From an uncultured Chloroflexia bacterium (GTDB lineage: Bacteria > Chloroflexota > Anaerolineae > B4-G1 > SLSP01), in the NCBI GenBank assembly GCA_963751345.1, contig CAVVUS010000019.1:32001-96000 (forward strand): 64,000 nucleotides of DNA, written 5' to 3'. The notes under the pieces were generated by a model. It was not told where the DNA came from. It saw only the letters and a program-made list of their open reading frames with translations, and did no database searches. The position numbers and the translations under genes are program-made. Positions 14,306-63,349 of the stretch are shown piece by piece (position 1 is the first letter of the stretch; each line of letters starts with the position of its first letter).

Positions 14306-14321
14306 ACCTGGGCGCCGGGCG

Positions 14322-15858: not shown

Positions 15859-15864
15859 AGCCCC

Positions 15865-19954: not shown

Positions 19955-20094
19955 GAAGTGCAGTCTCGGTCCATTTCGGCGTATTATCCGGTTTCACGCC
20001 TCCGAGTCAAGGCACGACGGGAATAAAGCGATTCTCTGTCCGGGCCAACCGCGGCCAGGTTTGTAGACGAACCACGCCTGTGCCGCGGTTGGGC

Positions 20095-32837: not shown

Positions 32838-32847
32838 CGCCTGCCCC

Positions 32848-33991: not shown

Positions 33992-33998
33992 GGCTTGC

Positions 33999-35129
33999 CT
34001 ACCCTAGCCTTTTCTGGAAGAACCGCGCGGACACCGCAGTGAAGACGAGGCCCAGACCCACGAGCGCGACTAGATGGGGCCACAAGGTGCCCATCCCGGC
34101 GTCCCGCAGAAAGATCGCGCGGGTGATGATGGCGTAGTGGGTGCCGGGGAGCGCCATCGCCTCCAGTTGCAGCTCCTGAGGCATCGACGAGATGGGGAAG
34201 AAGATGCCCGTGAGGAAGAAGCCCGGGAAGAAGATCACCAGGAACGAGAGCGCCAGGGCCGCGGGTTGCGTTTTCATGAAGACCCCCACCAGCGTGCCCA
34301 TACCCAGCATCGCAAAGAGAAAGACCAGGGAGAAGATGAAGAAGAGTGGGAAGCTGCCATGGAATGGAACCCCGAAGCTGACCATCGCGACCAGGGGGAT
34401 CAGGAGCACGTTGAGCAGCCCCACCGCGATGTAGGGGATCATCTTGCCGACGAGGAGCTCCGCCCGCGTGATGGGCGTCACCATGATCTGCTCCAACGTC
34501 CCGTGCTCTCGTTCATGCGCGATGGCGAGCGCAACGGAGAGCGCCGGGAAGCCGAGGACCAATGAGATCAAGCCCGGTACCAGGTCGACCTGCGACCTGA
34601 GGCCGGGATTGTACCGCGCGCGGACGTCGATCCGGATCGGCTGGAGCGTCTCCACCTGGAGGGGGCCGCCCAGCCGGGCGAGGTACTGCGTGGCGAAGGC
34701 CTCGGCGCGTCCGCTGATGTGCTGGACCGCAAAGGTGCCGCCTTGAGGCTCTGTGCCATCGATGACCACCTGGAGCGGCAGCCCCCGGCCCGCCGAGAGT
34801 TCCTGCTCGAAGGTCGGGGCGATGATCAGTCCCGCCTTGATCTTGCCGCGCATCAGGAGGTCGTCGATGTCGGAGAGTGTCGCGACCTGAGCTGCAAGGT
34901 CCAGATCCACGCCGACCGTGACCTGCTGGATGAAGCTCCGCGAGGCCGCGCTGCGGTCGAGGTCGAGCACCGCGATCGGCACGTGCTTGATGTCGACCGT
35001 GAGCGCGTAGGCCATCACGAAAAGGGTCGCGAGGGGCGTGAGCAGCACCAAGATGAAGGTCGCCCGATCTCGGAAGATGTGCTGGATCTCCTTGCGAATG
35101 ACGGCCCTCAGATGGGCGAAGGCGCTCAT
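33999..35129 (-). CDS. ABC-2 type exporter permease (YbhR/S-like)
   Basis: 'KEIQHIFRD', 'VLDLDRSAASR', 'YNPGL', 'EREHGTLEQIMVTP', 'LTGIFFPISSMP'. Confidence 0.9.
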   Translation of the reverse strand: MSAFAHLRAVIRKEIQHIFRDRATFILVLLTPLATLFVMAYALTVDIKHVPIAVLDLDRSAASRSFIQQVTVGVDLDLAAQVATLSDIDDLLMRGKIKAGLIIAPTFEQELSAGRGLPLQVVIDGTEPQGGTFAVQHISGRAEAFATQYLARLGGPLQVETLQPIRIDVRARYNPGLRSQVDLVPGLISLVLGFPALSVALAIAHEREHGTLEQIMVTPITRAELLVGKMIPYIAVGLLNVLLIPLVAMVSFGVPFHGSFPLFFIFSLVFLFAMLGMGTLVGVFMKTQPAALALSFLVIFFPGFFLTGIFFPISSMPQELQLEAMALPGTHYAIITRAIFLRDAGMGTLWPHLVALVGLGLVFTAVSARFFQKRLG

Positions 35130-47013: not shown

Positions 47014-49534
47014 ATGAACCGTAGGTATCGAGTGGGCCTTCGTATCGTGTATGTCGTGGTTCTTCTGTTGTCGGTGTCGGTCGGACAGGTACGGGCCGAT
47101 CCGATCGATACGCCAATCGGGCCGCCGTTGCCGCAGCAGCCCGATCTGCCGTTCCACCTGCAGTCCGGTCCCCTTACACGGGTACCATAGCGCCTCTGGC
47201 CGTCACGTCGGCGCCGCCGCTGAAGGTGATCACGGACCCGACGCTGGATATGAGAGTGCTCGTCATCATGGATAGCGAGATCCAGGTCATCGACTATACG
47301 TCCGACGGCGTTAACCAGATGATCACTGGGCTATCTGGACATCCTGGGTATCCCCTATGACGTCCATCGATATCAACGGTCGGGACCGGGCGTTCCACTG
47401 TTCACCGATGCGGAACTGTGGGACGGGGTGAACCACGGCAACTACTACGCGATCTTTGTCGGCACCTACGCTGTCTGGTTGTATGGACCGGACAAGCTCA
47501 CCGCTGACGAGCGTGCTCCTGATCCAGGCCTACGAGCGCAATTTCGACGTGCGACAGGTGACGTGGTACGCGTACCACTGAGGCCACCCAATGGGGACTT
47601 GATCCTGGGCCAGACGGCGGTCAGCCGTGACGACGACGCTGACAGACGCAACGGCGAGACGGTCTTCAGCTACCTCAAGTCCGACATCGAGCTACCGATC
47701 ACCGATGCCTACACCTATCTCGGGACACGTGCTGCTGGGGCCGTCGTCACACCACTGCTCGAGTTCCGCGATCCGGCCACATCTACACGGACAGTCGATA
47801 GCTATCCGATCGTGAGCATCTTCGAGCCCACCGATTCCGGCGACCAGATGGTGGTGACGGCGGCTGCGTACTATCCCGCGACGCCGCCAGTGAGCATCCA
47901 GGCCGGCTGTTGCCCTACGGCATCATCAACTGGGCGACCAAGGGGGTTTTCCTCGGCCAGCGCCACCTCTACTTCACGCCGCAGCCCGACGATATGCTCT
48001 CGTATCGGCGACCGGTGGGATGCGACCACACACACTACGGTCTTTGATCAGGGCTTCCGGCTGAAACCGAGCGATGTGGACAATCTGATCTCGTGGATGA
48101 CTGCGTTCCGCGCCACGGCCAACGCAGCAGAACTTCAAGATCGAGATGCCATTCAACGGCGAGGGTGTGGAGTACGATACCGAGATGGCACGATGAACGG
48201 TACCATCCTGCCCAACACCCTGACGGCCAAGGTCATCAAGCAGACGTAAAGGACATTCGTCTGGCTCAATCACACGTGGAGCCATCCGGATCTCTACACG
48301 TCCACGTACCAGTTCGCATACGATGACATCTACAGCAACACCCTCACGGCCCAGCTTCTCGGCTTCACGGATTACACGACCACCACGCTGCTGACGGGGG
48401 CCTACAGCGGGCTGACAAACACCAGGTGATCAGCGCCGCCTACGACCTGGGCGTCCGCTACATGGAGTCGAACGCATCGCAGCCGGGCTTCAACAATCCC
48501 AGCCCCAACACCGGGATCTACACCGGCACCGGCGGGGCGATGCTCCTGGTGCCGCGCCTGGCCAACAAATCTTCTACTTCGCGGGCACGCCGGACGAGGA
48601 GGTGGACTACTACAACCTCGTGTACGATGCAATCAACGGTGCTGTACTATTGCGAGCCTATTACGACCACTCCGATTCCGGGGCACCTTTGCTACAACTA
48701 CAACGAGATCCTGGATAGGGTCACAAACCAGGCGCTGGGCTTCCTGCTCGACTTCAACGTCGACGCGACGATGTTCCATATGAACAACCTGAACCAGTAC
48801 TCGGGTGGCACCAACACCTTGATGGGCGACTACGTGACCGCGCTCTACAGCAAGTACAACACCTACTACAACACAACGTGCCGATCCTGAGCCCGCGCAC
48901 GCAGGAGATCGGCGACCTGATGCAGCAGCGGATGGACTACAACGCTTCCGGCGTATCGGGCATCATCGCCTGCGCCAACCAGATCACGGTGACCATCCCG
49001 ACGACCGCGACCACCGGCGCCCGGGTACCGGTCACCGGCGTGGACTTCGGCGGCGACACCGAGAACTACGCCGGGCAGGACATCTCCTACGTGCAGATGG
49101 GCATCGGCGAGACGGTGGTGATCCCCGGCACGGGGTCGGCTTCGACGCCGGCGCCGTCACCAATCTGCAGGTCACACCGGGGACGCCCACGACGCTGACC
49201 TGGGACTGCTGACCCGAATGCCTATGGCTACCGCGTCTACGGCAGCACGACGTCCGGTCACACCTGGCCTACAACCGAGCTGGGCGTGGTCACGACAGCG
49301 ACGTACTCCGATGACTCCGGCAGCACCTACTACGCCGTGACCGCGATCGCCAATGACTGCTGGAAACACGAGTCGGCGGCGTCCTTCGTGAATATACCCC
49401 CCACGGCACTGACGCTGGTCGGGATAGGCGCCACATCGGGCTCGCTCGTGCTCGTGGGCCTAGTCCCGCTGGCTGCGGTCGCCCTGGTGGTCCTGAGTCT
49501 CGTGTGGAGCAAGCGCAGGCATCAGGTAAGGTGA
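47014..49534 (+). CDS. Agd3-like (CE18) polysaccharide deacetylase with signal peptide and C-terminal membrane anchor, heavily frameshifted
   Basis: Signal peptide MNRRYRVGLRIVYVVVLLLSVSVGQVRA. Manual translation gives 'GIINWATKGVFLGQRHLYFTPQPDDM' (from 47919), 'WLNHTWSHPDL', 'LLTGAYSGL', 'LLVPR', 'TMFHMNNL', matching the Agd3 motif order. C-terminus is 'PPTALTL'+TM+'KRR'. Confidence 0.72.
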
Positions 49535-49540
49535 CCCATC

Positions 49541-51170
49541 ATGAGTGATCGCGCAAACGAAGTAGACGTTCGGGAACCCGATGGTGACGGCGGAAGCAGC
49601 ATCTTCCGCCATCACCCCCTGCGCGTCTGCCTCGTGGCCGAGGGAAGCTATCCTCACTACCGCGGCGGGGTCAGCACGTGGTGCGACATGCTGGTGCGCG
49701 GCATCACCGAGGTGCAGTTCTCGCTGGTAAGCATCATCGCCGACCCGAGTGTCGAGCCCGTCTACGAACTCCCCGGCAACGTGCGGGAGCTGCGGCCGGT
49801 GGCGCTCTGGGGAACCGGCGAGGTGCTTGAGCTGCATCGCGACCTGGGGTTGCTGGACGTGATTCGCAGGAAGCGCAGCGCACCCGCTCGCGTGATCGAG
49901 GGCGAGTTCCTGCCGTCCTTCGCCGAGTTCGTGGATCTGCTCTGGCAGGAGGAGGCGGCCCCGGACCGCGTCGCCCACACACTGCAGTCGATGGCGGCCT
50001 ACTTCGTCGGGCACGACTACGACATCACCATGCGGTCCCGCCTGGTGTGGGAGACCTTCCTGGAGCGCAGCGTGCCTGCGTATCAGGCCAGCCACGGGAG
50101 CGCGGCCCCGGTGGCGATGAGCGACGCTACAGACGTCATGCGATTGCTCTACCGGTGGCTCACCATGCTCTCGATCCCGGTCCCGGACGTGGACGTGATC
50201 CACGCGGCGTCGGCAGGGCTTGCCAGCATGATGGGCATCGTGGCTGCGGCGCGACCGGGCATCGCTTTCCTGCTGACCGAGCACGGCATCTACCTGCGCG
50301 AGCGGCTGCTGGCGCTCACCCGCAGCGAGAGCAGCGTCTTCGAGCAGGCCTTTCAGGCTGCTTTTGCCCAGCGGATCACCGAGGCGAGTTACTGGTCGGC
50401 CGACCAGATCGCGCCCGGCAGCAACTACAACCATCGCTGGGAGACCTACGTCGGCGCAGAGCCCTCGTTGATTCAGACCATCTACAACGGACCGGATCCC
50501 GCGGAGTTCACGCCGACGGTTCTGAATCGCCCACCGGGCGAGGCGCCGATCGTGATCTGGTTGGGCCGCATCGATCCGCTGAAGGATCTGGAGACGCTGA
50601 TCCGGGCGGCCGCCATCGTTGTCGACCAAATGCCCGATGTGCAGTTCGTGCTCTACGGCAAGGCTCCGAGGGGCAATGAATGGTACTACGACCGGTGCGT
50701 GGCTCTGAGGGATAGCCTGGGCATTGCGGACAACGTGACCTTCGCCGGCTTTGCCGCGAGTGCCGCGGCTGCCTACAACGAGGGGGATTTTGTGCTCCTC
50801 TCGAGCATCTCGGAGGGTTTCCCCTATAGCGTCGTCGAGGCAATGATGTGCGCGCGAACGGTCGTAGGCACCGATGTGGGGGGGGTGAGCGAGGCACTTG
50901 AGGATGTTGGGCTGGTGGTGGAGCCCCGGAACCCGGAGCAGATGGCCCAGGCCTGTCTCAAGCTGCTGCGAGACCCGGACCTGGCCCGAGAGATGGGGCG
51001 GCGGGCGCGGGAGAAGGCGCTGTCGCAGTTCAGCCTCCAGCAGTGCAATGCTGCTTATCTGTCAACCTATCAATCCCTGGCACGCCGGGCCCGGCTCGGG
51101 ACAGGGCGACCGCCGGATCGCGGAATCGGCAGCCGTGGCAACTCCGGTACCGCAGGTGGTGCGGCGATGA
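49541..51170 (+). CDS. pelF: PelF-like GT4 glycosyltransferase (DUF3492 + Glycos_transf_1)
   Basis: 'VCLVAEGSYPHYRGGVSTWCD', 'LLTEHGIYLRER', 'LGRIDPLKDLETL', 'LSSISEGFPYSVVEAM', 'TDVGG'. Probable true stop at TGA 51170 (ATGA overlap) after a frameshift. Confidence 0.88.
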
Positions 51171-52801
51171 GCCAGCCAAGCGGTCCCGTGAGCGCTCTGC
51201 CGTCGTCGCTGGAGGCCTACGAGTCGGTCCAGCTCCTTGCCGATGACATTCGCGACACCTGCCCCGCGCCTGTCAACACGCTGCAAATCGCGGCGCTCCT
51301 GGAGTCGGCCGGTGTGACCGACGCCATTGCCGCGCACCGCTACGGGTATCGCGATGTCTTTGGCGTGGCGGACACTGTCGCGGATCTGCTGGATGGGCGC
51401 GGCGTTTGACTGCGAGCCGCAGAAGGAGCCCGTTGCAGAGCCATCGACGGATTGGCGGTCGGCCACGATGAACTATCTGCGCGGCCCCCTGGGGGTCGTG
51501 CCGCTGGTCCTGCTGATGTCGATTGTCGGGGCGTTGCAGAGCTTCGGCCAGTGGCAAGGACCGCGGGTGCTCACGTTGAGCGCTGCAACGATTGGCAGCC
51601 TGCTCATCACAGGTGGGTTCGTGCAGATCGCTTCGCGCAAAGGCTCCAGCTATCTTAGCCAGGGGTACGCCAGGGCCGCCGGGCGGTTCGTGGTCAGGAT
51701 GCTCGCCGTGGCCGTGGCCGTCGTCGTCGTGACTGCCTTCCCGCTCGCCTGGATGGGTCGGGCGACCGGGTGGCTGGCGGCGACTGATGCGCCACTGATG
51801 ATGATCGCCTACGTTGCGCTCTCCTGTCTGTGGTTGCTGTCGGCGGTGCTCTCGATCTTCAAGCGCGTACACTGGTTTGGCATCGCCCTCGCATTGGGCG
51901 TGGGCCTCAGCCGTCTGTCGCTGATCGGGCTCGCGCGGTCGACGCTGCTGCCTCAGGTGACGGTTGGGGTGGCTGTGGGGGTGGGACTCCTGGTGACGAT
52001 CGGGGTGGGGGCTTGGGCTGCCCTGCGGGCGGTGTCTGCGGAATCCTCCGCGTCGGAGAGTGGCGACCACGTCGTCCGGACGCCGCCGCTGCCCCAACTT
52101 GTGGTCAATCTGACGCCCTATTTCATCTATGGCATCATCTATATTCTGGCCGTGCTCTCGGGGCACGTGGGGGGATGGCTCGGGCGGCTCCCCGCGGGAC
52201 TTGACCGTATGGACGCGATTGCGAGAAGCGAGCTGGGCCTCACGGTCGCACTTGTGGCGTACATCCTGGTCGGCGGCGTGGCAGAGGAGACAATGCAGCG
52301 CTTCTGGCAGTGGGTTCACGTCTATCAGGCGGAAACGATGGCGGCACAGCCCGGTGGCTTCTCGGCGAAGCTGCGTGACTTCCAGCGTACCGAGCTCAGG
52401 TGGTTTGTTGTCGCGTTTCTGGCGTCCGCGGGCCTGGTGCTCGTGCTCGTGGCCGTGAGTCGTGGTGCTTTCCCCAGACGGCATGCTGCTTGGGTTGCCC
52501 TGGGGACCGGACCTGGGCCATCGTGCTCGGCTTCGGCCTGGTCGGCTGTGGCCTGCTGGGTATCAGTGCGTTCGACTGCATGATGCTGATCACGCTCTCC
52601 CGCCCGTGGCCCGCGGTGCTGGCCCTTACTGCCGGCACGGTGACCACGCTCATTGCGAGTCTTGGCTGGGGGCATTGGGTGGGCTTCGCGTATGGTGCGG
52701 CCGGGATGGTTTTCGGGAATCTGGTTGCTTTTCTGGTGGCACACCGCGCCTTGCAGCGCGTGTTGCGTCACGCTGATTACTACTACTTCACGTCGTTTTA
52801 G
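51167..52801 (+). CDS. Multi-TM membrane protein at the PelG-like (export/polymerisation) position, two frameshifts
   Basis: N-terminal 'QIAALLESAGVTD..A..RYGYRDVFGVA', about 12 TM segments, 'SLLITGGFVQ...RKGSSY', 'PYFIYG', C-terminal 'ADYYYF'. Confidence 0.65.
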
Positions 52802-52853
52802 AGCGCGGGATGCCTCCCGCGACATCTACCACACCAAGCAGCACAAGGAGGCA

Positions 52854-53846
52854 ATGATGGATTGGACAGGGAAACGAGTTCTCGTGACGGGCGCGAGTGG
52901 GTTCATCGGTAGTCATCTGGTTGAGGCCCTCGTAGGTGAGGGCGCCACGGTGCGCGCGCTCGCCCACTACAACTCACGAAACGATGCCGGGCTGTTGCGC
53001 CGGCTGCCGCCCGACGTGCAGCGCGAGGTCGACGTCTTCTACGGGGATCTCAAGGATCCCTGGTCGGTGCATCAGGCGATGGAGGGGACGGAGACCGTCT
53101 TCCACCTCGGCGCACTCATCGGGATCCCGTACTCATACGTGAATCCCTACGACGTCGTGCAGACGAATGTCCTGGGCACCTACCACGTGCTGGCGGCTGC
53201 CCGGGATCTTGGCGTGGGCCGCGTGGTCCACACGTCGACGAGCGAGGTGTACGGGTCGGCGCAGTATGTGCCGATCGACGAGAACCATCCGCTGCAGGGC
53301 CAGTCGCCCTACAGCGCGAGCAAGATCGGCGCGGACAAGCTTGCGGAGAGCTTCTATCTCTCTTTCGAGCTTCCCGTCAGCACGGTCCGGCCCTTCAATA
53401 CCTATGGGCCGCGCCAGTCTGCGCGGGCTGTGATCCCCACGATCATCACCCAGGCGCTGACCCAGGATTTCGTCAAGCTGGGCGCGCTCTATCCGCGGCG
53501 CGATTTTACCTATGCGACGGATACGGCGGCGGGCTTCATCGCGGCTGCCGAGAGCGATGCTACCGTCGGGCAGGTGGTCAACCTCGGCACCGGTGATGAC
53601 ATCACCATTGGGGAGCTGGTCGACCTGGTCGTTGAACTCATCGGTCGCGATATCGAGGTGCGAAGTGACCAGGGGCGGATTCGACCGGAGGGAAGTGAGG
53701 TGGTACGTCTGCTGTCCAACAATCAGAAGGCGAAGGCGATCATGGGATGGGAACCGCGGGTCGGATTTCGTGAGGGCTTGGAGAGGACAATTTCGTGGAT
53801 TGGCGAGAACCTGGACCTCTATCAAACGGAGCGGTACACGATATAG
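52854..53846 (+). CDS. NAD-dependent NDP-sugar 4,6-dehydratase/epimerase (LegB-like extended SDR)
   Basis: 'VLVTGASGFIGSHL', 'YNSRN', 'FHLGALIGIPYSY', 'TSTSEVYG', 'QSPYSASK', 'PFNTYGPRQSARAVIPTII'. Confidence 0.85.
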   Translation: MMDWTGKRVLVTGASGFIGSHLVEALVGEGATVRALAHYNSRNDAGLLRRLPPDVQREVDVFYGDLKDPWSVHQAMEGTETVFHLGALIGIPYSYVNPYDVVQTNVLGTYHVLAAARDLGVGRVVHTSTSEVYGSAQYVPIDENHPLQGQSPYSASKIGADKLAESFYLSFELPVSTVRPFNTYGPRQSARAVIPTIITQALTQDFVKLGALYPRRDFTYATDTAAGFIAAAESDATVGQVVNLGTGDDITIGELVDLVVELIGRDIEVRSDQGRIRPEGSEVVRLLSNNQKAKAIMGWEPRVGFREGLERTISWIGENLDLYQTERYTI

Positions 53847-53895
53847 CGCTGGATCTTTTTGGAATGATGCTTGTGCCGAATTTGGGGGGTGTGAA

Positions 53896-54658
53896 ATGAA
53901 AGCAGTGATTATGGCAGGCGGGAAAGGGACGCGGCTGGCGCCTTTTACGAAGGTACTTCCGAAACCACTTGATACCGCTGGGGGACTATCCCATCCTGGA
54001 GATCATCATCAGCCAGCTCAGAGAGGCCGGATTTGATGAGATCATCCTGACCGTCAATTACCTGGCCCATCTCTTTGAGGCCTACTTCGGCAATGGTGAG
54101 CGGCTGGGGGTCAACATCCGGTATTCGCTGGAGGAGCGGCCTCTGGGAACGGCAGGGCCCCTGGCACTGATCGACGGCCTCGATGAGGAGCCGTTCCTTG
54201 TGATGAATGCGGATTTGCTGACCGACATTGACTTCCGGCATCTCTACTCGACGCACCTCGCACAGGACGCCGCGGTCACGATGGCGCTCTATGCCAAGGA
54301 GTACAAGATTGACTTCGGCGTGATCGAGACGGATGACACCGGGCGGGTGTTGGCGTGCCGGGAGAAGCCGGTACTCAATTACCTGATCAATATGGGGGTC
54401 TACGTCGTCTCACCCTACGTCCTTGACGAGATCCCCTACAACAGCTTCTTCGACATGACGGACGTCATCGCACGGGTCAGTCCCAGCCCGAGGGGTGTCT
54501 ATGGCTACCGGTTTGAGGGCACGTGGATGGATCTGGGCAAGGTCGATGACTTCGACCGGGTCGCGTCGAAGTTCCAGCACCTGATCTCGGTCGCGGAGAC
54601 GCGGATCCCGCTCGAATCGTACATCCATCTCCTGTCGGCAGCGCCGGCGGAGGCATAG
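53896..54658 (+). CDS. Sugar-1-phosphate nucleotidyltransferase, frameshift near 53968
   Basis: 'MKAVIMAGGKGTRLAPFTKVLPKPL' joins 'IPLGDYPILE', 'PLGTAGPL', 'VMNADLLTD', 'INMGVY', 'WMDLG'. Confidence 0.9.
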
Positions 54659-54661
54659 GCT

Positions 54662-55612
54662 GTGGAGCGAATGGCCGGCCCGGTGCTGGTGACCGGGGCG
54701 ACAGGGTTTGTGGGTCGCCACATGATCGACTTGCTGTTGAGCCACGGGTACGAGGTAGCCGCGGCGAGCATCCCCGGCGATCCCCTTCTCGCCGCGCTGC
54801 CGCCGGGCGTCTCCCGGTTGGCGTTCGACATCCTCGACCTTGACGCCACGACCGGGGTGCTGGCCCAACTGCACCCGTCTGTCGTCTTCCACCTTGCGGG
54901 GCTCGCGCGCGGCGGTGACCTCCAGCGGCTGCTGGCAGTGAACGTCATAGGCACAGAGTGTCTGCTCAAGGCAGCACGCGCGCTGGATCAGCCCGCCACC
55001 GTGGTCATACCGGGCTCCGCGTCGGAATATGGGATCCTCCCGGCTCCTGAGCCGGTGAACGAGGACGCGCCCCTCGCGCCGATCTCGGCGTACGGCGTGA
55101 GCAAGGCCGCGCAGACGCTGCTCGGGCTGAGCTATGCGCGGCGCGGTGACGTGCCTGTGGTGGTGGGGCGGATCTTCAACATCACGGGGCCGCGTGAGCC
55201 GCAGGCCATGCTCGTCGGGGCGATGGCCGGGCAGGTCGCCGCGATTGAGCGAGGCCGGCTCCCGGCCGTGGTCAGCGTCGGCAATCTCGATCCCTATCGC
55301 GATTACATCGATGTCCGCGATGCTGTGCAGGGTCTGTGGCTGCTCTGGCGCTATGGCGAGTCGGGCCGGGCGTATAACCTGTGCAGCGGCACCGCGATCC
55401 AGGTGCGTGAGGTGGTACGGAGGGTGGTGGCGCTGTCGAGCGTGCCGATCAGGATCGAGCCCGATCCCGACCGCCAAAGGCCCTCTGACATCCCGTACTG
55501 TGCCGGGGATCCGCAGCGTGTAGCATCCGCCACGGGCTGGCAGCCGCAGTATTCGCTCGACGAATCGCTCCAGGCTACGCTTTCGTGGTGGCGAGAGGCG
55601 TCGCAAGCCTAA
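54662..55612 (+). CDS. NAD(P)-dependent NDP-4-keto-6-deoxysugar reductase/epimerase (Rmd-like extended SDR)
   Basis: 'VLVTGATGFVGRH', 'VFHLAG', 'GSASEYG', 'YGVSK', 'FNITGP', 'VGNLDPYRDYIDVRD', 'YNLCSG', 'DPDRQRPSD'. Confidence 0.8.
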   Translation: MERMAGPVLVTGATGFVGRHMIDLLLSHGYEVAAASIPGDPLLAALPPGVSRLAFDILDLDATTGVLAQLHPSVVFHLAGLARGGDLQRLLAVNVIGTECLLKAARALDQPATVVIPGSASEYGILPAPEPVNEDAPLAPISAYGVSKAAQTLLGLSYARRGDVPVVVGRIFNITGPREPQAMLVGAMAGQVAAIERGRLPAVVSVGNLDPYRDYIDVRDAVQGLWLLWRYGESGRAYNLCSGTAIQVREVVRRVVALSSVPIRIEPDPDRQRPSDIPYCAGDPQRVASATGWQPQYSLDESLQATLSWWREASQA

Positions 55613-56355
55613 GGCAGCGTATCGAGCCGGTAGTTCGTGACGAAGGGCACGAACCCGTGGGCCAGGGCACGCTTGATCGCTTTGGCCCTCAGAGCGTGGT
55701 CGCCGGGCGCCGCGTAATCGAGCGCCAGCAGTACATGCCGGTCGAAGGTCGCCCGCAATTCCAGGGCTTTCTGCGTCGTCCACGCGAGGTCCGCGCCGAG
55801 CCACGATCTGTAGCGTGTGCCGTCGTAGTGGCTGGTGAACGCCTCGAAGACCACGCCGTCCGCCACCTCGCGGACCGTCTCCAGGACAGTGAACCCACGA
55901 TTGACGAGCAGGCCGGTCTCCGGATAGGCCGCCCGGATCCGACGCATCAGCTGCTCAACCCCTGGTCGTGTATCCGCGACTCGGTCCTGCACGTCCACTG
56001 TGTCGAGAAAGAGTCCGCTGAAACCTACGCCCAGCAGGCGTGGCACCAGATCGTCGAGCACGTGATCCTGCCACAGCAACGACCGGCAGTCCACCAGACC
56101 CGTACCCCACTTCAGATTCACCATGGGTCTGCCGGTATCGGGATCGAGGATCTGCCACGGGCCCTCCGCTTCGGATCCGAAGGCTTCTCCCAACGATAGG
56201 TAAGCGAACGTCCGCGTGCCTGCCGCCTCGAGGGAGGCGATCTCCGGAGGCGTGTAGTGGGCGGCCTGCAGGATCACCAGATTGTAGGCTGCCAACTGGA
56301 CGAGGCGGCCCATACCGTAATAACACGCGTATCGCGTAGGTAGTGCCAATCGCAT
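55609..56355 (-). CDS. Endo-alpha-1,4-polygalactosaminidase-like hydrolase (GH114/GH166, PelA hydrolase-like), no signal peptide
   Basis: 'YACYYG', 'FAYLSLGE', 'GFSGLFLDTVD', 'LLVNRGF', 'GVVFEAF', 'LLALDY'. Confidence 0.85.
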   Translation of the reverse strand: MRLALPTRYACYYGMGRLVQLAAYNLVILQAAHYTPPEIASLEAAGTRTFAYLSLGEAFGSEAEGPWQILDPDTGRPMVNLKWGTGLVDCRSLLWQDHVLDDLVPRLLGVGFSGLFLDTVDVQDRVADTRPGVEQLMRRIRAAYPETGLLVNRGFTVLETVREVADGVVFEAFTSHYDGTRYRSWLGADLAWTTQKALELRATFDRHVLLALDYAAPGDHALRAKAIKRALAHGFVPFVTNYRLDTLP

Positions 56356-56463
56356 ACGTATTTATTCCCCCCACATTCCCTCCGCTCTGCCCGGTCCACG
56401 TATTATAGACGATGTCGATCGGGTTGTCCGCCTCTCCTGTTCTAACCGTAATCCTCCTTGTGC

Positions 56464-56492
56464 TTGCGTTATGGTTGTATTATGACTATAAT
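56464..56492 (+). promoter_or_regulatory. Sigma70 promoter
   Basis: TTGCGT-17 nt-TATAAT upstream of the two-domain hydrolase. Confidence 0.65.
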
Positions 56493-56512
56493 GCGCGGCA
56501 TGGAGGTATTAC

Positions 56513-58760
56513 ATGATGGTAAGCGAGATGTGTTTCAAAGTTGGCCGTTGGATGCGGCCCGCGGCGAAGAGCACTGTGGTGCTCATTCTCCTGCTGGTCC
56601 TCACACCACTGGCACAGGTCTCGGCACTGGCCGCAGCACCCGACATCGAGACACCAGCAGCGCAAGCCGCCGATCCGCCGTATAGGGTGTTTGTGCCCCT
56701 TCTGCGGCGCGATCCGGTACCCTCTCTTTCCACACCCACACCAACTCCTTCACCTACACAGGCTCCAGGCGGGGCCGACTGGTCCTCAGTAGAGACTTGG
56801 GTTTATCAACTATCGGGTTACACGAATGACTCACTGGATGAGATTGCAGCAAGCGGCTTCGACATGGCCGTGATCGATCTGGCTCGCGACGGTGGCAGCG
56901 ACTACTGGTCGCGCAGCGAGATCAATGCACTCCGGGCAACCGGTACGATCGCATTGGCCTACTTCGAAGTTGGGGCCATCGAGAACTACCGGCCGGAGTG
57001 GGGGGATGTCCCGGCTGATATGAAGCTGGGGGCTGTCTCGGGATGGCCATCAGAGCAATATGTGGCCTACTGGGACCCACGTTGGTGGCCGATCGTGCAA
57101 GGACGCGTCGACCAGGCGATTGCCGCGGGTTTCGATGGCGCCTACCTCGACATGATCGTGACCTATGAGGAGATCCCCGCCGGTGCAGCCGGGACCAACC
57201 GCGCCGATCTGGCCCAGAAGATGGTGGATCTGATCGCGCGCCTTTCGACGTATGCCAAGGCGCAGGATCCGGACTTCAAAGTTGTACCGCAGAACTCGCC
57301 CGAGCTGCGGAAGTACAATGGTTACCTGGATGCGATCGACGGGCTGGGCATGGAGGAGCTGTACTTCAAGGCTACAGACCGCGCGTGCACGCAGGCCTGG
57401 TGCTACGAGAACCAGGACAACGCCGCCGCGGTGGCGGCTGCCGGCAAACCGGTCCTGACCATCGATTACGCTAACGATCCGGCCAATATCGACAGCGCCT
57501 ACGAGCAGTCGTTGGCGGCCGGTTTTGTGCCTTACGTGAGCGTCGTCAACCTCGATGTCGTGCGACTCAACTGCCCCTGGAGACCACACCCGGTTCATCC
57601 GCCGCACCCGGGCGACCCGAAGTCCACCCCGACCCCAACCGGTACACCTGACCCAACCGCTACACCCGTGCCAACGTCGACGCCAACAAGCACGGCCACA
57701 GCCACCTTGACACCCACAAGTTCACCTACGGCATCGCCGACGCCGACGAGCCCGCCCACGGCGACGCCGCAGCCCACCAATACACCGACGCCGACGGCGA
57801 CGCCCACGGCAACCCCGACACCTACGAGCACGCCTACGGCAACGCCGCAGCCGACCAATACACCTACGCCGACGGCGACGCCCACGGCGACCCCGACACC
57901 TACGAATACACCTACACCCACCCCAACCGCACCGGCGGGCGGGGGCAACTGGGGGTCGGTATCGGACTGGGTCTATCAGCTGAGCGGGTACCAGAACGAC
58001 AGCCTGAACCAGATCGCCGCAAGCAACTTCGATCTGGCGGTCGTGGATCTGGCACGTGACGGTGAAGCAGATTACTTCACGCGAGCCGAGGTGCAGGCGG
58101 CACAGGCTACGGGCAAGATCATACTGGCCTACTTCGAAATCGGGGCCATCGAGAACTATCGCCCGGAGTGGGGGGACGTCCCGGCGGATATGAAGCTGGG
58201 CGCCGTGGACGGATGGCCGTCGGAGCAGTATGTGGCCTACTGGGATCCTCGCTGGTGGCCGATCGTGCAGGGCCGGGTTGACCAGGCCCTGGCAGCAGGC
58301 TTCGATGGCTGCTATCTGGACATGATCGTGACCTATGAGGAGATCCCCGCGGGCGCCGCAGGCACCAACCGTGCCGATCTGGCACAGAAGATGGTGGACC
58401 TGATCGCGCGCCTTTCGGCCTACGCCAAGGCAAAGGCCCCTGACTTCAAGGTGGTGCCACAGAACTCACCTGAGCTGCGGACGAATACGGGTTATATGAG
58501 CGCCATCGACGGTCTGGGTATGGAAGAGCTCTACTTCATGGCGACGGACAAAGCCTGCAGCCAGAGCTGGTGCATCGAGAACCGAGACAACGCTGCTGCG
58601 ATCGCAGCAGGCGGGGAAACTCGTGCTGTCGATTGACTACGCCAACAATCAGGCGAACATCAGCAGCGCCTACACCCAATCGCGTGCTGCGGGGTTTGTG
58701 CCCTACGTGAGCGTGGTGGCCTTGGACGTGATGCGCATCAACCCGGGGTTCGAGCCCTGA
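56513..58760 (+). CDS. Secreted protein with two GH114-like (MJ1477/TM1410-type) domains joined by a Pro/Thr linker, frameshift near 58615
   Basis: Signal peptide; 'WVYQLSGY', '[14 protein letters not shown]', 'YVAYWDPRW', 'GFDG.YLD', 'VVPQNSPEL', 'G.GMEEL', '.IDYA' each occur twice. Confidence 0.85.
57620..57930 (+). repeat. Pro/Thr-rich linker with approximately 78-bp tandem units
   Basis: '[24 protein letters not shown]' occurs twice, with matching DNA. Confidence 0.85.
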
Positions 58761-58831
58761 TCTCTGTCGTTGAGAATCACTGAGCCGACCGGGTCGGGAG
58801 CACTCCCGTACGTCGCTTCCGGCCCGGCCGT

Positions 58832-58858
58832 GAGATGGCACCCATCGGGTGCCATCTC
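58832..58858 (+). terminator. Hairpin, probable intrinsic terminator
   Basis: gagatggcaccc-atc-gggtgccatctc is a perfect 12-bp stem followed by ttgctt. Confidence 0.6.
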
Positions 58859-58886
58859 TTGCTTATAGTTGCATTCTAATTATAAT
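58859..58886 (+). promoter_or_regulatory. Sigma70 promoter resembling the one at 56464
   Basis: TTGCTT-16 nt-TATAAT. Confidence 0.6.
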
Positions 58887-58904
58887 GGCGTAATGGGTTT
58901 GCGA

Positions 58905-59972
58905 ATGATGACCACAAGAACCACGTTCCTCGTCGGGAGCCGCCTGCGTGCACTTGGTGCAGTCCTGGTTCTGGCGGGAGTCACGCTCGCGCCGGTTCCC
59001 TTTGCCAGGTCGTCCGATCTGGGTGGGTCTACCTCTGGTCCGCTACCTGCCGCGCTTGCCGCCGCCGCGGAGGGGACGCGCGTCTACTTGCCGCTGGTTC
59101 AAGGTCAGATGCCCCCCGCGGTTTCTCCGCCGACACCGGTCCCGCCGTCCGACGATGGGAGCTGGAATGGCGTCGCGAACTGGGTCTACCAACTGAGTGG
59201 TTATCCCAATGGTTGCCTTGACCAGATCGCCGGTTCGGGCTTCGATCTGGCGGTGGTCGACCTCGCCCGCGACGGGAGCGATGACTACTTCACACGCGCC
59301 GAGGTCGGGGCTGCCCAGGCGACGGGCAAGGTGATGCTGGCCTATTTCGAGATCGGCGCCATCGAGGACTATCGTCCCGAGTGGGGTGACGTTCCGGCGG
59401 ATATGAAACTCGGCGCTGTGGACGGGTGGCCCTCCGAGCAGTACGTGGCCTACTGGGATCCGCGCTGGTGGCCGATCGTGCAGGGCAGGGTCGACCAGGC
59501 GCTTGCGGCGGGCTTCGACGGCTGCTATCTGGACATGATCGTGACCTACGAGGAGATCCCGGCCGGCGCCGCAGGCACCAATCGGGCGGATCTGGCTCGA
59601 AAGATGGTCGACCTGATCGCGCGTCTCTCGGCTTACGCCAAGGCGCGGGATCCGGGCTTTAGGGTAGTCCCACAGAACTCACCGGAGTTACGTGAGGTCT
59701 CAGGCTATCTGGACGCGGTCGACGGGCTGGGCATCGAGGAGCTCTACTTCCTGGCCACGGACAAGGCGTGCACCCAGACCTGGTGCTACGAGAACCGGGA
59801 TCACGCTGCGGCGATTGGGGCCGCGGGGAAGCTCGTCCTGACCATCGACTACGCCAACCAGCAGGCCAACATCGATAGCGCCTACAAGCAGTCGTCGGCC
59901 GCGGGTTTTGTGCCCTACGTGAGCGTCCGGAACCTCGACGTCGCGCGACTCAACGTCGGATGGGAGCCGTAA
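58905..59972 (+). CDS. Secreted single-domain GH114-like (MJ1477/TM1410-type) hydrolase
   Basis: Signal-like N-terminus, 'RVYLPLVQ', and a catalytic domain nearly identical to both domains of 56513..58760. Confidence 0.87.
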   Translation: MMTTRTTFLVGSRLRALGAVLVLAGVTLAPVPFARSSDLGGSTSGPLPAALAAAAEGTRVYLPLVQGQMPPAVSPPTPVPPSDDGSWNGVANWVYQLSGYPNGCLDQIAGSGFDLAVVDLARDGSDDYFTRAEVGAAQATGKVMLAYFEIGAIEDYRPEWGDVPADMKLGAVDGWPSEQYVAYWDPRWWPIVQGRVDQALAAGFDGCYLDMIVTYEEIPAGAAGTNRADLARKMVDLIARLSAYAKARDPGFRVVPQNSPELREVSGYLDAVDGLGIEELYFLATDKACTQTWCYENRDHAAAIGAAGKLVLTIDYANQQANIDSAYKQSSAAGFVPYVSVRNLDVARLNVGWEP

Positions 59973-59996
59973 AGACGATTCGGTAGCTCTATCTGT

Positions 59997-60172
59997 AACC
60001 TTTCGAAGGTGGCCCGAGGATCGGCGCTGATGCCGCCGACCCTCGGGCTTGACCTATCGCGAGGTCGGTTGAATGATAACCTTGCGAAGGTCGTGTCGCG
60101 CCTTCTCTTGTGGGCGCCGGCGGTTACGCAATCATCGTCGATGCGAGGCCCGGTCGCAACCTTGGCAAGGTT
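59997..60172. repeat. Cluster of short ACCT(T)-N-(A)AGGT palindromes plus a hairpin
   Basis: aacctttcgaaggt (59997), gacctatcgcgaggtc (60051), aaccttgcgaaggt (60078), aaccttggcaaggtt (60158); hairpin gcccgagg...cctcgggc (60012..60048). Confidence 0.6.
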
Positions 60173-60195
60173 TGCAGCTCCCTTAGGAGGCGACG

Positions 60196-62148
60196 ATGCG
60201 ACGTCGGTGGTTATTTGGCATCCTGATTCTGTTGGCGCTGGCGGTGCGCCCGACGTACGCCGCGCCCGCTCCACCGGAGGACTTCGGCGGCGGGCCGATC
60301 GAGCCCCCGCGGTCCGAGATTTCCGACGCGGAATGGGCCTCGATTCAGCACGACGTCGATGCGGCCATCGCGCAGCTCGAGGCCGACGGTCGCCTCTCCG
60401 CGGCGAGTGGGGAGGCCGTCTCCTTCGGCTGGCCGCTGCGCGCGGCCAACGGGCTCACCGACTACGGCTACCACGGCGTCTCGGGCTTCGTCGATCACAA
60501 CCCGGCGACGGGCGCGTGGCTCGACTACACCTGCGGCAATAGATCCTACGATCTGAGCAGCGGCTACGATCACCAGGGCACCGACTTCTTCACGTATCCC
60601 TATCCCTGGTACAAGGTGGAGCACTCCGAGGTCGAGATCGTGGCCGCAGCAGCGGGCACCCTGGTCTCCCGACACGATGGGGAGTATGACCGGCAGTGCG
60701 CGATGACCGGCGTCACCGCCAACTCCGTCGTGATCCGCCACGCCGATGGGACGCTGGCCTACTATCTGCACATGAAGAAGGGGTCCGTTACGCCCAAGGG
60801 TGTCGGGGCATCCATCGCGGCGGGGGAGTACCTCGGCGTCGTCGCGAGCTCCGGCAGCTCGACGGGGCCCCACCTTCACTTCGAGGTGCGGTCGGCGACC
60901 AATCAGGTGCTCGACCCCTTCCACGGTGCCTGCAACGCGCCGGCGTCCATGTGGGCAGACCAACCTCCCTATTACGATTCGGCGGTGATCGCGGTTCACA
61001 CCGGTGATGCGCCACCCTACCGGCCCACGTGCCCCGGCGTCGAGACGACGCACATCGAGGACCATTTCGCGCCCGACGACACGGTCTATTTCGTGACCAC
61101 CTATCGCGACCAGCTTGCCGGACAGCAGAGCACCTACCGGGTTATCCGGCCTGACGGCTCCACGTACCAGACCCGGACCTATACCGCCACCTACCCGCAC
61201 TACACCGCCTCGTACTGGTACTGGTCGACGGGCCTTGATCTGTACGGGACGCCGCCCCTGGGCACGTGGCGCTTCGAGGTCGACTTCGAGGGCCGGACCT
61301 ACGAGAACGAGTTCCACGTCGGCGTGCCGACGGCGATCACCGTGACCTATCTTAACGGCGGGGAGGCCTGGCCTACGCGCGGCGTACTCCCTATCACCTG
61401 GGACGACACGGTGCCCGGCAATGTCGGGATCGATCTCTACGCCGGCGGGGCGCTCACCCGGCCGATCACCACGTCCACGCCCAGCGACGGCGTCGTCTTC
61501 TGGGGGATTCCTGCAGATCTGGCGCCAAGGACCGACTACCAGGTGCGGATCACGGAGCTGGCCAACCCCGCCGTCTTTGACGAGAGCGACGCCGCCTTCA
61601 CGATCGCGCCCGTGCCGGTGGCGGACTTCGTCGCGGCGCCGGTCACGGGGATTGCGCCGCTGACGGTGAGCTTCACCGACACTTCCAGCTCGCTCGTGGA
61701 TGCGTGGCGGTGGGGGTTCGGCGACGGGATCACGGCGACCCTGCAGTACCCAACGCACGTCTACACTACCACCGGCGTCTATACGGTTACCCTGTCGGCA
61801 ACCGGCCCGACGGGTACCGGCGTGATCACCCGCACGGATGCCATCACGGTCACGCCGCCGCCGCTTGCCGCGGACTTCACGGGCTACCCGATCCTGGGCA
61901 CGCCACCGTTGACGGTCACCTTTACCGACCGCTCGGTTGGCCCGCCGGTTGGGGCGTGGGCGTGGGCCTTTGGCGACGGCATCACCAGCACGCTGCAGCA
62001 TCCTGTGCACGCCTACACGCAGACCGGCGTCTACACCGTCACGCTGGGCGTCATCGCGGCGGATGACGATGATCTCGTCGCGCGCCCGGCCTACGTCCAC
62101 GTCGTTGACCAGGTGTGGGGGGTGTACTTGCCGCTGGCCTTGCGGTAG
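60196..62148 (+). CDS. Secreted M23-family metallopeptidase with Ser/Thr-rich beta-domain and two PKD domains
   Basis: Signal peptide; 'HQGTD', 'YYLHM', 'SGSSTGPHLHFEV'; PKD 'WGFGDG..ATLQYPTHVYTTTGVYTVTL' twice; C-terminal 'VYLPLALR'. Confidence 0.9.
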   Translation: MRRRWLFGILILLALAVRPTYAAPAPPEDFGGGPIEPPRSEISDAEWASIQHDVDAAIAQLEADGRLSAASGEAVSFGWPLRAANGLTDYGYHGVSGFVDHNPATGAWLDYTCGNRSYDLSSGYDHQGTDFFTYPYPWYKVEHSEVEIVAAAAGTLVSRHDGEYDRQCAMTGVTANSVVIRHADGTLAYYLHMKKGSVTPKGVGASIAAGEYLGVVASSGSSTGPHLHFEVRSATNQVLDPFHGACNAPASMWADQPPYYDSAVIAVHTGDAPPYRPTCPGVETTHIEDHFAPDDTVYFVTTYRDQLAGQQSTYRVIRPDGSTYQTRTYTATYPHYTASYWYWSTGLDLYGTPPLGTWRFEVDFEGRTYENEFHVGVPTAITVTYLNGGEAWPTRGVLPITWDDTVPGNVGIDLYAGGALTRPITTSTPSDGVVFWGIPADLAPRTDYQVRITELANPAVFDESDAAFTIAPVPVADFVAAPVTGIAPLTVSFTDTSSSLVDAWRWGFGDGITATLQYPTHVYTTTGVYTVTLSATGPTGTGVITRTDAITVTPPPLAADFTGYPILGTPPLTVTFTDRSVGPPVGAWAWAFGDGITSTLQHPVHAYTQTGVYTVTLGVIAADDDDLVARPAYVHVVDQVWGVYLPLALR

Positions 62149-62175
62149 TCGTCTCCTCCTCTACCTGCGAGGCCG

Positions 62176-62210
62176 AGATGGGTCCAATCTTCCGAAGATA
62201 GGACCCATCT
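62176..62210. repeat. REP-like hairpin related to 1063..1098, between convergent genes
   Basis: agatgggtccaatctt-ccg-aagataggacccatct is a 16-bp stem with one mismatch. Confidence 0.7.
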
Positions 62211-62214
62211 ATTC

Positions 62215-63349
62215 TTACGGTAGCGCCCACCTCGTCCAAAGCAGACTGCACGGCTCGCCTTCGCGCACCTTCTGATAGTAGACGGTGAAGAGTGAGCCGC
62301 CGGGCAGCTCGACGCTGGCAGGATAGCCGAGGTCGCCGTCGGGGCCGTCGTCGCGCAGCACGTAGCCTGCCTCCCAGCTTTCGCCCTCGTCATAGCTGAC
62401 CATCGCGCGTTGCCCGAAGGGGGCCAGCCGGTAGCCGTAGACGGCGACGAGCGCGCCGCCGGAGTGGCGGATGACGTGCGGCGGAGAGCCGTGGAAGCCC
62501 AGCGGCTGCGCCGTGGTCCACGTGCGCCCGCCGTCGCCGGACGTGGTCTGCATCATCGAGAAGTCGGGGATCCCGGCGTCCGCCAGCAGAGGCGCGGTGC
62601 CGTGGTTCTGGATGCGGATGAGGCCCAGGAGCCGGTCGTGCCCAAGGGCGACGACGTGGGGCTCGTGGTAGTGCTCGGCGACCGTGTGCAGGGCCAACGG
62701 CACCGTGCCCAGCTCGTGCCACGTGAGGCCACGGTCCTCGCTGCGCCACGCCTGGATGGCCTCGCCGCGCCCGTGCGTGAAGACCTTGCCGAGGTAGAGC
62801 AGCGCGTGCCCGTCGGGGAGCAGGATAGGACCGTGCGGGGCGGTGACAGGGACGTGGCGTGGGGGACCCCAGGTGTCGCCTCCATCGTCGCTGACGCGCG
62901 TCCACGATCCGAGCCAGCGGTCGACGGCAGCGTCCGTAAGGCGCCGGAAGCCATCCTCATAGCGGCGGACCGCCGCGGGATCCGCCAGGCTGTGATAGCT
63001 CTTCGCGACGTCGTAGCGGCGGGTGTCGGACGTGAACCACGTGACGAGCAGCGCCCCGCCACCGAGGCTGACGATGCCGGCGTCGCGGTCGTCGATGGGC
63101 AGGTCGTTGATGACCGTGGGTGTTGTCCACGTGTGGCCCTCGTCGCGGCTGCGCAGGAGCAGCGTGCGCCCGAAGGGGTCCACATGGGTGTGGCGGAAGC
63201 CCCGAGGCCACGACCAGCAGGGCGCCGTCGTCGGTGCGCGCGACGCTGGGCCACCCGAAGTATCCGAAGAACTCGCCGGGCAGCGTGCAGACGACGCCGT
63301 GTTCCGCCGTGACGGGCCGCGGCGCGTGGTTCACGACCGGTGCGGACAT
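62215..63349 (-). CDS. Sialidase-like BNR/Asp-box beta-propeller protein, frameshift near 63200
   Basis: 'YFGWPSVAR', Asp-boxes 'SRDEGHTW', 'SDDGGDTW', 'SEDRGLTW', 'SGDGGRTW', 'SYDEGESW', and 'DLGYPAS'. Confidence 0.85.

Follow-up and report, generated by a model that had tools for sequence, protein, structure and literature searches.

The stretch of DNA analysed here (the window) comprises 64,000 nucleotides, positions 32,001 to 96,000 of contig CAVVUS010000019.1 in assembly GCA_963751345.1, from an uncultured Chloroflexia bacterium. Judged by sequence relationships, positions 47014-59972 of the window probably hold a synthase-dependent exopolysaccharide cassette of the bacterial agd3-operon kind, in a form conserved in Anaerolineae. 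By analogy with known systems, its polymer would be an alpha-1,4 hexosamine chain like Pel or galactosaminogalactan (GAG). The source genome (5.4 Mb, 49 contigs) is rated 93.4% complete and 5.6% contaminated. Genes were called from the list of open reading frames (ORFs) together with Pfam and NCBIfam scans of the window ORFs, and every gene named by an earlier sequence-only reading of the window is present. They encode an Agd3-like deacetylase, a PelF-type glycosyltransferase, a PelG-like membrane protein, three sugar-nucleotide enzymes and three hydrolases. That reading had described a single plus-strand run of genes, which is correct for the synthesis and deacetylase genes, but the first of the hydrolase genes (55609-56355) is a minus-strand gene. 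Its central proposal was a Pel/GAG-type cassette for synthesis and modification, in which an Agd3-type enzyme of carbohydrate esterase (CE) family 18 replaces the deacetylase of PelA, and the family matches agree with this.

The deacetylase gene (47014-49534, plus strand) was read in three frames with the help of orthologue alignments and a family profile as that of an Agd3-like CE18 polysaccharide de-N-acetylase. None of its ORF pieces matched a family in the Pfam scan. In genome G016 of the same genus an intact syntenic locus (L011) was found, with a pair of Agd3-like paralogues 872 and 878 residues long. They scored 87-91 bits on Pfam Agd3_CE (cut-off 27.6) and 18.9-21.4 bits on the carbohydrate-binding module CBM87, a weak match under the Pfam cut-off. 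A single-sequence phmmer search of the PDB with an intact orthologue gave no match; only the profile search succeeded. There, a profile of 28 family sequences matched the crystal structure of Agd3 (6NWZ, E 2.6e-53); the match has two stretches, at profile positions 81-377 and 389-657, and supports a relation to Agd3 across the CBM87, CE and C-terminal regions. The protein combines a signal peptide with a CBM87-like region and a CE domain, and at its C-terminus stands a hydrophobic membrane anchor that has a basic tail; the signal peptide and the anchor were read directly from the sequence.

The catalytic motifs of CE18 are Asp-Asp (CM1), HxxxH (CM2), Arg (CM3) and Met-x-His (CM4) (PMC7229062). 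In the 28 Agd3-like sequences D352, D353, H443, H447 and H613 are invariant and R539 nearly so, and these residues align with the Agd3 motifs. The corresponding QPDD, HTWSH, VPRLAN and TMFHMNN are still legible in the window pieces, in different frames, and fall at family columns that are invariant or nearly invariant. By its sequence relation and its four catalytic motifs, the deacetylase belongs to CE18. A second Agd3-like gene, also lying in three frames, is present at G000:C33:56164-58352 (locus L032, 9168-11383), with no PelF nearby. It is 55% identical to a G016 paralogue over the C-terminal 447 residues and stands between a short-chain dehydrogenase/reductase (SDR)/aldo-keto reductase group and a fusion of a GH42 beta-galactosidase with a GDSL domain.

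The next gene (49541-51166, plus strand) encodes a PelF-type glycosyltransferase of family GT4, with a DUF3492 N-domain and a GT1 domain. It scored 160.6 bits on Pfam DUF3492, 97.4 bits on Glycos_transf_1 and 170.6 bits on the NCBIfam PelF equivalog (cut-off 100), and it is 74% identical to an orthologue of the same genus. By this domain composition it is the cytoplasmic GT4 enzyme with a DUF3492 N-domain that defines PelF in a Pel system. The window PelF is only 26-29% identical to canonical Chloroflexota PelF, and the NCBIfam PelF scores of its subtype are 169-178 bits, against 461-509 bits at canonical Chloroflexota loci. The PelF ORF has no stop until 51409, and its frame extends into the part of the PelG-like gene that encodes the N-terminal domain. 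In orthologues the two genes are separate, and in G016 they overlap by ATGA. The run-on may be due to an indel error, or else the two parts, for which mutual binding is predicted, are locally fused. A PelF-PelG gene fusion was dropped as a firm claim, as the run-on occurs only in the error-prone window copy while the orthologues are separate.

The third gene (51167-52801, plus strand; tblastn pieces, Pfam and an AlphaFold 2 model) encodes a PelG-like membrane protein with the multidrug/oligosaccharidyl-lipid/polysaccharide (MOP) fold. It belongs to a family of proteins of about 540 residues, 60 of which were found. PelG of Pel systems is a MOP-superfamily membrane protein with 12 helices, and the link of the window protein to it is weak by sequence. 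The middle piece of the window gene scored 28.1 bits on Pfam PelG (cut-off 29), the intact orthologue had no PelG match in the Pfam scan, and 9 of 28 aligned family members matched Pfam PelG, the best with E 9.2e-10. Comparison of the family with two canonical PelG sequences by hhalign gave an uninformative probability of 0.5%, and phmmer found no match in the PDB at E up to 1. The Atlas look-up gave 25 of 30 feature matches that share the PelG set, with a score of 0.93. The model of the orthologue has a predicted local distance difference test (pLDDT) of 86.5 and a predicted template modelling score of 0.82, and its best fold matches are MATE, MurJ and Wzx transporters, all pointing to the MOP fold. 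As the profile check proposed with the sequence-only reading turned out, the PelF and Agd3 assignments stand, and the membrane protein is a MOP-fold protein that is probably a remote relative of PelG.

The PelG-like protein has an extra conserved helical domain of about 95 residues at its N-terminus, on the cytoplasmic side. The canonical PelG of another Chloroflexota locus (L029) is without this domain, and its PelG match starts at residue 8. A model of the complex between PelF and the N-domain scored 0.86 in three runs, whereas the best of three controls scored 0.00. Among solved complexes 116 of 157 attain that score, against 2 of 215 mismatched pairs; these counts apply only roughly here as our own alignments were used. 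The runs shared at least 54% of contacts, with a partner pLDDT of at least 65. Invariant residues in the predicted interface are R252, E253, L256 and R298 of PelF and L39, A43, E46, G49 and F65 of the N-domain. Binding of PelF by the N-domain of the PelG-like protein is thus supported, not demonstrated, by the complex model.

In the canonical Pel complex, PelD and PelE hold and activate PelF (PMC13254593). No PelD, PelE, PelB or PelC family was among the Pfam matches of the window ORFs; for PelB and PelC this is limited to the window, as no genome-wide search was made. A tblastn search of the 93%-complete genome at E 1e-4 with a Chloroflexota PelD-like GAF protein, its HEAT neighbour and a canonical PelG matched nothing, which is in line with the expectation that no pelDE genes elsewhere would complete an ordinary Pel system. 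PelD_GGDEF had no match in the genome, but the same search matched no control genome either. In the Pfam-scanned flanks of seven related loci nothing next to the cassette qualifies as PelD or PelE; GAF proteins occur there only at L044 and L046, more than 6 kb from it. As for PelA, the hydrolase part is represented by a GH166 protein, whereas the deacetylase is of CE18 here instead of CE21 (CE26 in Gram-positives).

The GH166 protein is the product of the minus-strand gene at 55609-56355, a PelA hydrolase-domain homologue of 248 aa recognised by PDB and Pfam matches. Over residues 6-247 it matches PelA in the PDB (9CGY, E 1.5e-24; 5TCB, 4.1e-22), and it scored 37.5 bits on Pfam GH114. Its stop-to-stop frame has just 250 codons, leaving no room for a signal peptide. 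The two genes that follow are on the plus strand. The first (56513-58760; Pfam and NCBIfam) encodes a secreted protein with two GH191 domains and a Pro/Thr-rich linker, scoring 197.6 bits on Pfam GH114 in two stretches. The second (58869-59972; PDB 9EP5) encodes a secreted GH191 endo-alpha-1,4-galactosaminidase-like enzyme of 367 residues. On NCBIfam TIGR01370 (cut-off 181.25) the tandem gene scored 320.8 bits and the single-domain gene 180.2, just under. Residues 87-367 of the single-domain product match 9EP5 (Env-GH191) with E 2.5e-121 and 408.6 bits, at about 65% identity as counted on the alignment. The match to TM1410 has E 2e-31 and that to Ega3 (GH114) only 1.5e-4. Strict GH114 membership of the secreted hydrolases was ruled out by the 9EP5 and TM1410 matches, which are far above that to Ega3.

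Family GH191 was defined from Env-GH191 and TM1410 (PMC12054363), and on this sequence evidence the secreted hydrolase domains belong to it. Four GH114/GH166-like domains in three genes had been noticed before; the number is right, and the families are GH166 and GH191, not strict GH114. Env-GH191 cleaves the Pel of Pseudomonas aeruginosa and prefers stretches rich in galactosamine (GalN) (PMC12054363). The kinship of the window enzymes to this Pel-cutting enzyme is the strongest pointer, at the level of homology, to the type of substrate. Env-GH191 shares 99% identity with a protein of Myxococcus fulvus (PMC12054363), and the identity of about 65% between the Anaerolineae enzyme and the Myxococcus-like 9EP5 suggests transfer of GH191 between phyla. 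A further GH191-like copy, read in two frames, lies at G000:C19:27813-28677, about 3.3 kb before the window start, and is 66-70% identical to the single-domain GH191 of the window.

It is very improbable that the locus attacks or consumes foreign Pel or GAG of neighbouring bacteria and fungi instead of building a matrix of its own. The three secreted GH191 domains and the further genomic copies would suit such a use, and the high identity to the Myxococcus-like Env-GH191 would then reflect transfer of a useful secreted enzyme. However, the hydrolases are conserved beside a PelF-type synthase and an exporter, and the cassette contains no genes for sugar uptake or catabolism.

Between the synthase and hydrolase genes, the window carries three plus-strand genes for sugar-nucleotide enzymes. 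The first (52854-53846; Pfam, NCBIfam and PDB) encodes an SDR-type nucleoside diphosphate (NDP)-sugar 4,6-dehydratase that is LegB-like. It scored 229.8 bits on Pfam GDP_Man_Dehyd, its orthologue scored 439.3 bits on NCBIfam TIGR04180 LegB (cut-off 475), and its best PDB match is the thymidine diphosphate (TDP)-glucose 4,6-dehydratase 1R66 (8.6e-39). LegB is an enzyme that we take to be a guanosine diphosphate (GDP)-N-acetylglucosamine 4,6-dehydratase. The second gene (53896-54658; Pfam, NCBIfam and PDB) encodes a sugar-1-phosphate nucleotidylyltransferase, and its Pfam NTP_transferase match is split over two ORFs at profile positions 1-24 and 26-241. The best NCBIfam match of its orthologue is a mannose-1-phosphate guanylyltransferase (171.6 bits, under the cut-off), and its best PDB matches are a UTP-glucose-1-phosphate uridylyltransferase and mannose-1-phosphate guanylyltransferases. 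The third gene (54662-55612; PDB) encodes an SDR resembling the NDP-4-keto-6-deoxyhexose 4-reductase Rmd. Its best PDB match is the GDP-6-deoxy-D-lyxo-4-hexulose reductase 2PK3 (E 8.1e-54), followed by the GDP-6-deoxy-D-mannose reductase 6X3B (4.6e-38).

By these matches the three-gene module looks like an NDP-6-deoxy sugar route, not like the 4-epimerase route to uridine diphosphate (UDP)-N-acetylgalactosamine (GalNAc). The precursor of Pel is UDP-GalNAc (PMC13254593), and the module, as far as homology tells, fits a 6-deoxy sugar rather than this precursor. The polymer may therefore differ from plain GalNAc/GalN. The sequence-only reading had proposed a polymer of the GalNAc/GalN type; the Pel/GAG-type cassette speaks for it, but the sugar module makes plain GalNAc/GalN doubtful.

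A product composed of, or containing, a 6-deoxy sugar (of D-rhamnose type, or a 6-deoxy-N-acetylhexosamine such as N-acetylquinovosamine (QuiNAc) or N-acetylfucosamine (FucNAc)) in place of a Pel/GAG-like GalNAc/GalN polymer is a rather unlikely alternative. Seven of 11 related loci have the trio between the synthase genes and those for the hydrolases, its dehydratase is closest to LegB, its reductase to GDP-6-deoxy-4-hexulose reductases and its nucleotidyltransferase to guanylyltransferases and a uridylyltransferase, while PelF, the sole glycosyltransferase of the cassette, is divergent. On the other hand, the nucleotidyltransferase is found alone in two of the 11 loci and no module is found in two others; with four of 11 loci lacking the complete set, the module is not a fixed part of the cassette. 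Moreover, the GH191 enzymes are close relatives of a cutter of GalN-rich Pel, the substrates of the SDRs are not readable from sequence, and the module could feed another pathway. The Pel/GAG-like hexosamine chain is the preferred product.

To map the distribution of the cassette, an alignment of the PelG-like family was scanned over one genome per species. This gave 13 loci, of which 11 were new and were examined by tblastn. Twelve of the 13 are recorded as Chloroflexota (Anaerolineae, Anaerolineales, Ardenticatenaceae, Promineifilaceae and Anaerolinea sp.) and one as Firmicutes; the 11 further loci comprise 10 from several Chloroflexota lineages and the one from Firmicutes. PelF was found upstream of the PelG-like gene in all 11. 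Agd3 was found upstream of PelF in seven; two contigs start inside PelF and two loci have none. The dehydratase-nucleotidyltransferase-reductase trio was complete in the seven loci mentioned above, GH166 was on the opposite strand in eight (two contigs end before it and one locus has none), and GH191 followed GH166 in six. Protein identities to the query set were 35-76%. The gene set is thus conserved in order across related loci, as the sequence-only reading had required of a genuine system. The Firmicutes locus L046 (UBA3570, 6603-21557) has a distant PelF/PelG-like pair (43% and 27% identity), with a GT2 glycosyltransferase, a CE4 deacetylase with DUF3473, a MurJ-like flippase and a GAF-HD protein instead of Agd3 and GH191.

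In an even sample of 401 genomes of the phylum, eight have Agd3_CE and nine a full-length PelF, and all eight Agd3_CE genomes lie within the nine with PelF. Agd3 stood within a few kb of PelF in six of the seven sampled Agd3_CE genomes other than the source genome. As eight of nine full-length PelF genomes also have Agd3_CE, Agd3 is the usual Pel partner in Chloroflexota. Two subtypes were seen. In the canonical one (L027 and L029) the order is GAF protein, HEAT-repeat protein, PelF, PelG (364-370 bits) and Agd3, with GH114 in L027. In the window subtype, present also in genome G319, PelF is divergent, the exporter is a remote PelG relative and no PelD/PelE was found. Orthologous PelF occurs patchily, in 3 of 21 other genomes of the same genus, and was not found in 19 other family- or order-level genomes searched.

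The window copy of the cassette is interrupted by frame breaks. The Agd3 gene has about 12 frame changes and one in-frame TAA at 48247, as seen by three-frame reading and by tblastn and DNA alignment to the orthologue of the same genus. The PelG-like gene lies in three frames, with breaks near 51391-51429 and 52460-52490, and the nucleotidyltransferase gene has one break near 53966. In the tandem GH191 gene an extra base near 58607 ends the ORF at 58636, and the shifted frame continues to 58760; this base is missing from soil run X1 and from contig C31.

We consider it quite likely that the frame breaks are assembly errors rather than decay, because 1-base indels are found elsewhere in the assembly (rpoB, an aldolase gene and a regulator gene). 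The essential gene rpoB (G000:C10:143888-147659) is read as a frame of 723 codons that abuts another of 624; rpoC and two uvrA genes are unbroken. An ABC-2 permease gene of the window (32837-34003) is split over two minus-strand ORFs (Pfam positions 19-244 and 250-346). Frame switches were counted by a codon-usage score and a Viterbi frame tracker; a filter on G+C content at third codon positions was dropped as too noisy. The tracker found at least 10 same-strand frame switches in 38 of 10588 overlapping 2.5-kb segments. Of six high-switch regions examined besides Agd3, four hold ordinary genes with Pfam domains split between frames or shortened (a class II aldolase, an FGGY kinase, a TIG-domain protein, a PAS/OmpR pair and a truncated dihydrodipicolinate synthase). 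The remaining two, L049 and L051 (G000:C25:16000-19800 and G000:C21:117000-120200), contain hardly any coding ORFs, matched nothing in Rfam and were left out of the count of broken genes. Short rpoB/rpoC-like fragments were also noticed at C14:94340-96104. At 11633-14302 of the window, three overlapping plus-strand ORFs in different frames with beta-helix and PKD domains probably represent one large surface protein with frame breaks.

Two other sequences cover parts of the locus. Contigs of soil run X1 do not have the private 1-base indels of the window at 48004, 48568 and 58607; each difference restores the frame, and the frame-restoring signs agree with the alignment to G016 and with C31. 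Run X1 contains 5% of the query words; its contigs derive from a relative, at mostly 85-99% identity, and reach parts of the locus only. As short contigs of a relative with partial cover, they cannot decide between error and mutation, and the stretches that they miss carry no information. Contig C31 (1-7394) is a 90%-identical copy of window positions 55601-63000, and its first base falls exactly where the reductase gene ends. The contig differs from the window by many 1-base gaps, eight of which break the frame of a gene for an M23 peptidase with PKD domains that is an intact 650-codon frame in the window. C31 is probably a related strain that was co-binned, in keeping with the contamination of 5.6%, and not a true duplication.

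The alternative, that the cassette is dead here and the Agd3-like gene, perhaps with the PelG-like and nucleotidyltransferase genes, is a true pseudogene of a dispensable, patchy locus, appears unlikely. It draws on the crowding of about 12 frame changes and a TAA into 2.5 kb of Agd3, the highest frame-switch density of the genome (14 switches within 2.5 kb, where the genome averages 0.8 per kb), on the normal typical ORF lengths of contig C19, on the position of the Agd3 indels outside homopolymers, and on the 3 of 21 congeneric genomes with orthologous PelF. Against decay stand the breaks in rpoB and the clustered breaks in ordinary genes of the same assembly. All four catalytic motifs of Agd3 are still legible, pieces in the correct frame keep high amino-acid identity (e.g. 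80% over 35 residues), insertions in the window Agd3 are at least as many as deletions, and wherever another sequence covers one of the private indels, in three cases, it does not have it. An intact cassette disturbed by assembly errors is preferred, and the practical lesson of the window copy is that this assembly contains clustered 1-base indels.

From family memberships, folds, catalytic motifs and gene order, which are directly observed, we infer every biochemical step of the following model. The nucleotidyltransferase, the LegB-like 4,6-dehydratase and the Rmd-like 4-reductase would supply an activated sugar, probably a 6-deoxy sugar. The cytoplasmic PelF-type GT4 would polymerise the chain, in analogy with Pel, and the MOP-fold PelG relative would move it across the single membrane. 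The extra N-terminal domain of the exporter probably holds PelF directly, replacing PelD/PelE, and the proposed system would consequently have no cyclic di-GMP (c-di-GMP) receptor. Outside the cell, the membrane-anchored CE18 Agd3-like enzyme would remove part of the N-acetyl groups, giving a cationic, adhesive polymer, and the one GH166 enzyme and three GH191 domains would trim or release the chain. Several of the observations above weigh against this model: the faint sequence link of the exporter to PelG, the 6-deoxy character of the sugar module, the lack of room for a signal peptide in the GH166 homologue, the patchiness of PelF within the genus, the density and non-homopolymer position of the Agd3 indels together with the TAA on a contig of otherwise normal ORFs, and its basis in homology.

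We also put forward, as a speculative and rather improbable extension, a minimal c-di-GMP-independent synthase of two proteins in which PelF is held by the N-domain of the exporter. It would make a '6-deoxy-Pel' from a GDP-6-deoxy-N-acetylhexosamine (e.g. D-FucNAc, which is 6-deoxy-GalNAc), and the CE18 enzyme would then render the polymer cationic. If this were true, '6-deoxy-Pel' would be a matrix polymer that still awaits chemical description.

Two other genes of the window were noted. The M23 peptidase gene at 60196-62148 encodes a secreted protein with two PKD domains and lies 3' of the cassette both here and on C31; it does not adjoin the cassette in related loci and is a local neighbour only. 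At 15868-17661, a frame of 598 codons combines a PRiA4_ORF3 domain (219.6 bits) with a SEC-C motif at its C-terminal end.

Anaerolineae, which are filamentous, abound in sludge flocs, granules, sediments and soils, and to our knowledge the glue that holds them together is poorly known. The cassette is a concrete candidate for a cationic Pel/GAG-like glue of this class. It may also offer, for the study of how Pel-type polymerases are tethered and switched on, a simpler synthase that does without PelD/PelE and consists of PelF and an exporter which brings a docking domain of its own, and the sugar module hints at 6-deoxy variants within the Pel/GAG polymer family.

The closest known systems are the bacterial agd3 operons. 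Agd3 homologues were reported in 45 bacterial species, with agd3 in or near operons of carbohydrate-active enzymes in 30 of the 35 species of the tree (Bamford et al. 2020, PMC7229062). That Nat Commun paper names operons from Actinobacteria, Deinococcus-Thermus and Proteobacteria, and the description is bioinformatic only (PMC7229062). They share with the window an Agd3 with CE domain and CBM, a cytoplasmic glycosyltransferase, a multi-spanning membrane protein and one or more GH114-type genes; the window holds all four elements, and the same order recurs in related loci. The claim that the locus is a novel 'hybrid' accordingly falls, as bacterial agd3 operons of such make-up were already catalogued there (PMC7229062). 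The window adds the sugar module, the GH166 and GH191 pair and the N-domain of the PelG-like protein, some of which may be drawn in Fig. 8c of that paper. Chloroflexota-related words were not found in its supplements, so far as these were accessible, and a search of the accessible literature found nothing that links Pel, galactosaminogalactan or Agd3 with Chloroflexota. The cassette thereby extends bacterial agd3 operons to another phylum.

The Pel system of Bacillus cereus, pelDEA(DA)FG (PMC7112168; PMC13254593), has the same monoderm layout without outer-membrane parts. It shares a PelF polymerase and an exporter of MOP type, as well as an extracellular deacetylase of three domains that is anchored in the membrane and acts on the emerging chain. 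In the window, by contrast, no PelD (the c-di-GMP receptor) or PelE was found, the deacetylase is of CE18 and not CE26, PelF is divergent, the exporter is a remote PelG relative, and the precursor module is not of the 4-epimerase kind. The canonical Chloroflexota loci L027 and L029 likewise combine PelF, an Agd3-like CE18 enzyme with CBM87 and a GH114-clan hydrolase in an operon; they differ in their PelD-like GAF-domain protein, HEAT-repeat protein and canonical PelG, and in having no sugar module.

The GAG cluster of Aspergillus fumigatus (uge3, sph3, ega3, agd3 and gtb3) shares with the window a CE18 enzyme with the four motifs and an adjoining endo-galactosaminidase of the same TIM-barrel clan. 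The window has a PelF and PelG-type synthase instead of Gtb3, and its hydrolases are of GH191 and GH166, not GH114. Spherulin-4 (GH135, Sph3) had no match in the Pfam scan of the window ORFs. The SDRs of the window are closest to a 4,6-dehydratase and a 4-reductase, with no 4-epimerase of the Uge3 type. Compared with Env-GH191 (9EP5), the gene at 56513-58760 carries two catalytic domains in tandem, and compared with PelA (5TCB, 9CGY) the GH166 protein stands alone without a signal peptide and is not the N-domain of a periplasmic PelA. In sum, this kind of operon has been known since 2020 but is uncharacterised, and the Anaerolineae-wide cassette is a lineage-specific variant of it. What is specific to the Anaerolineae form is the lack of PelD/PelE, an exporter with a predicted PelF-docking domain, the 6-deoxy-sugar module and the pair of GH166 and GH191.

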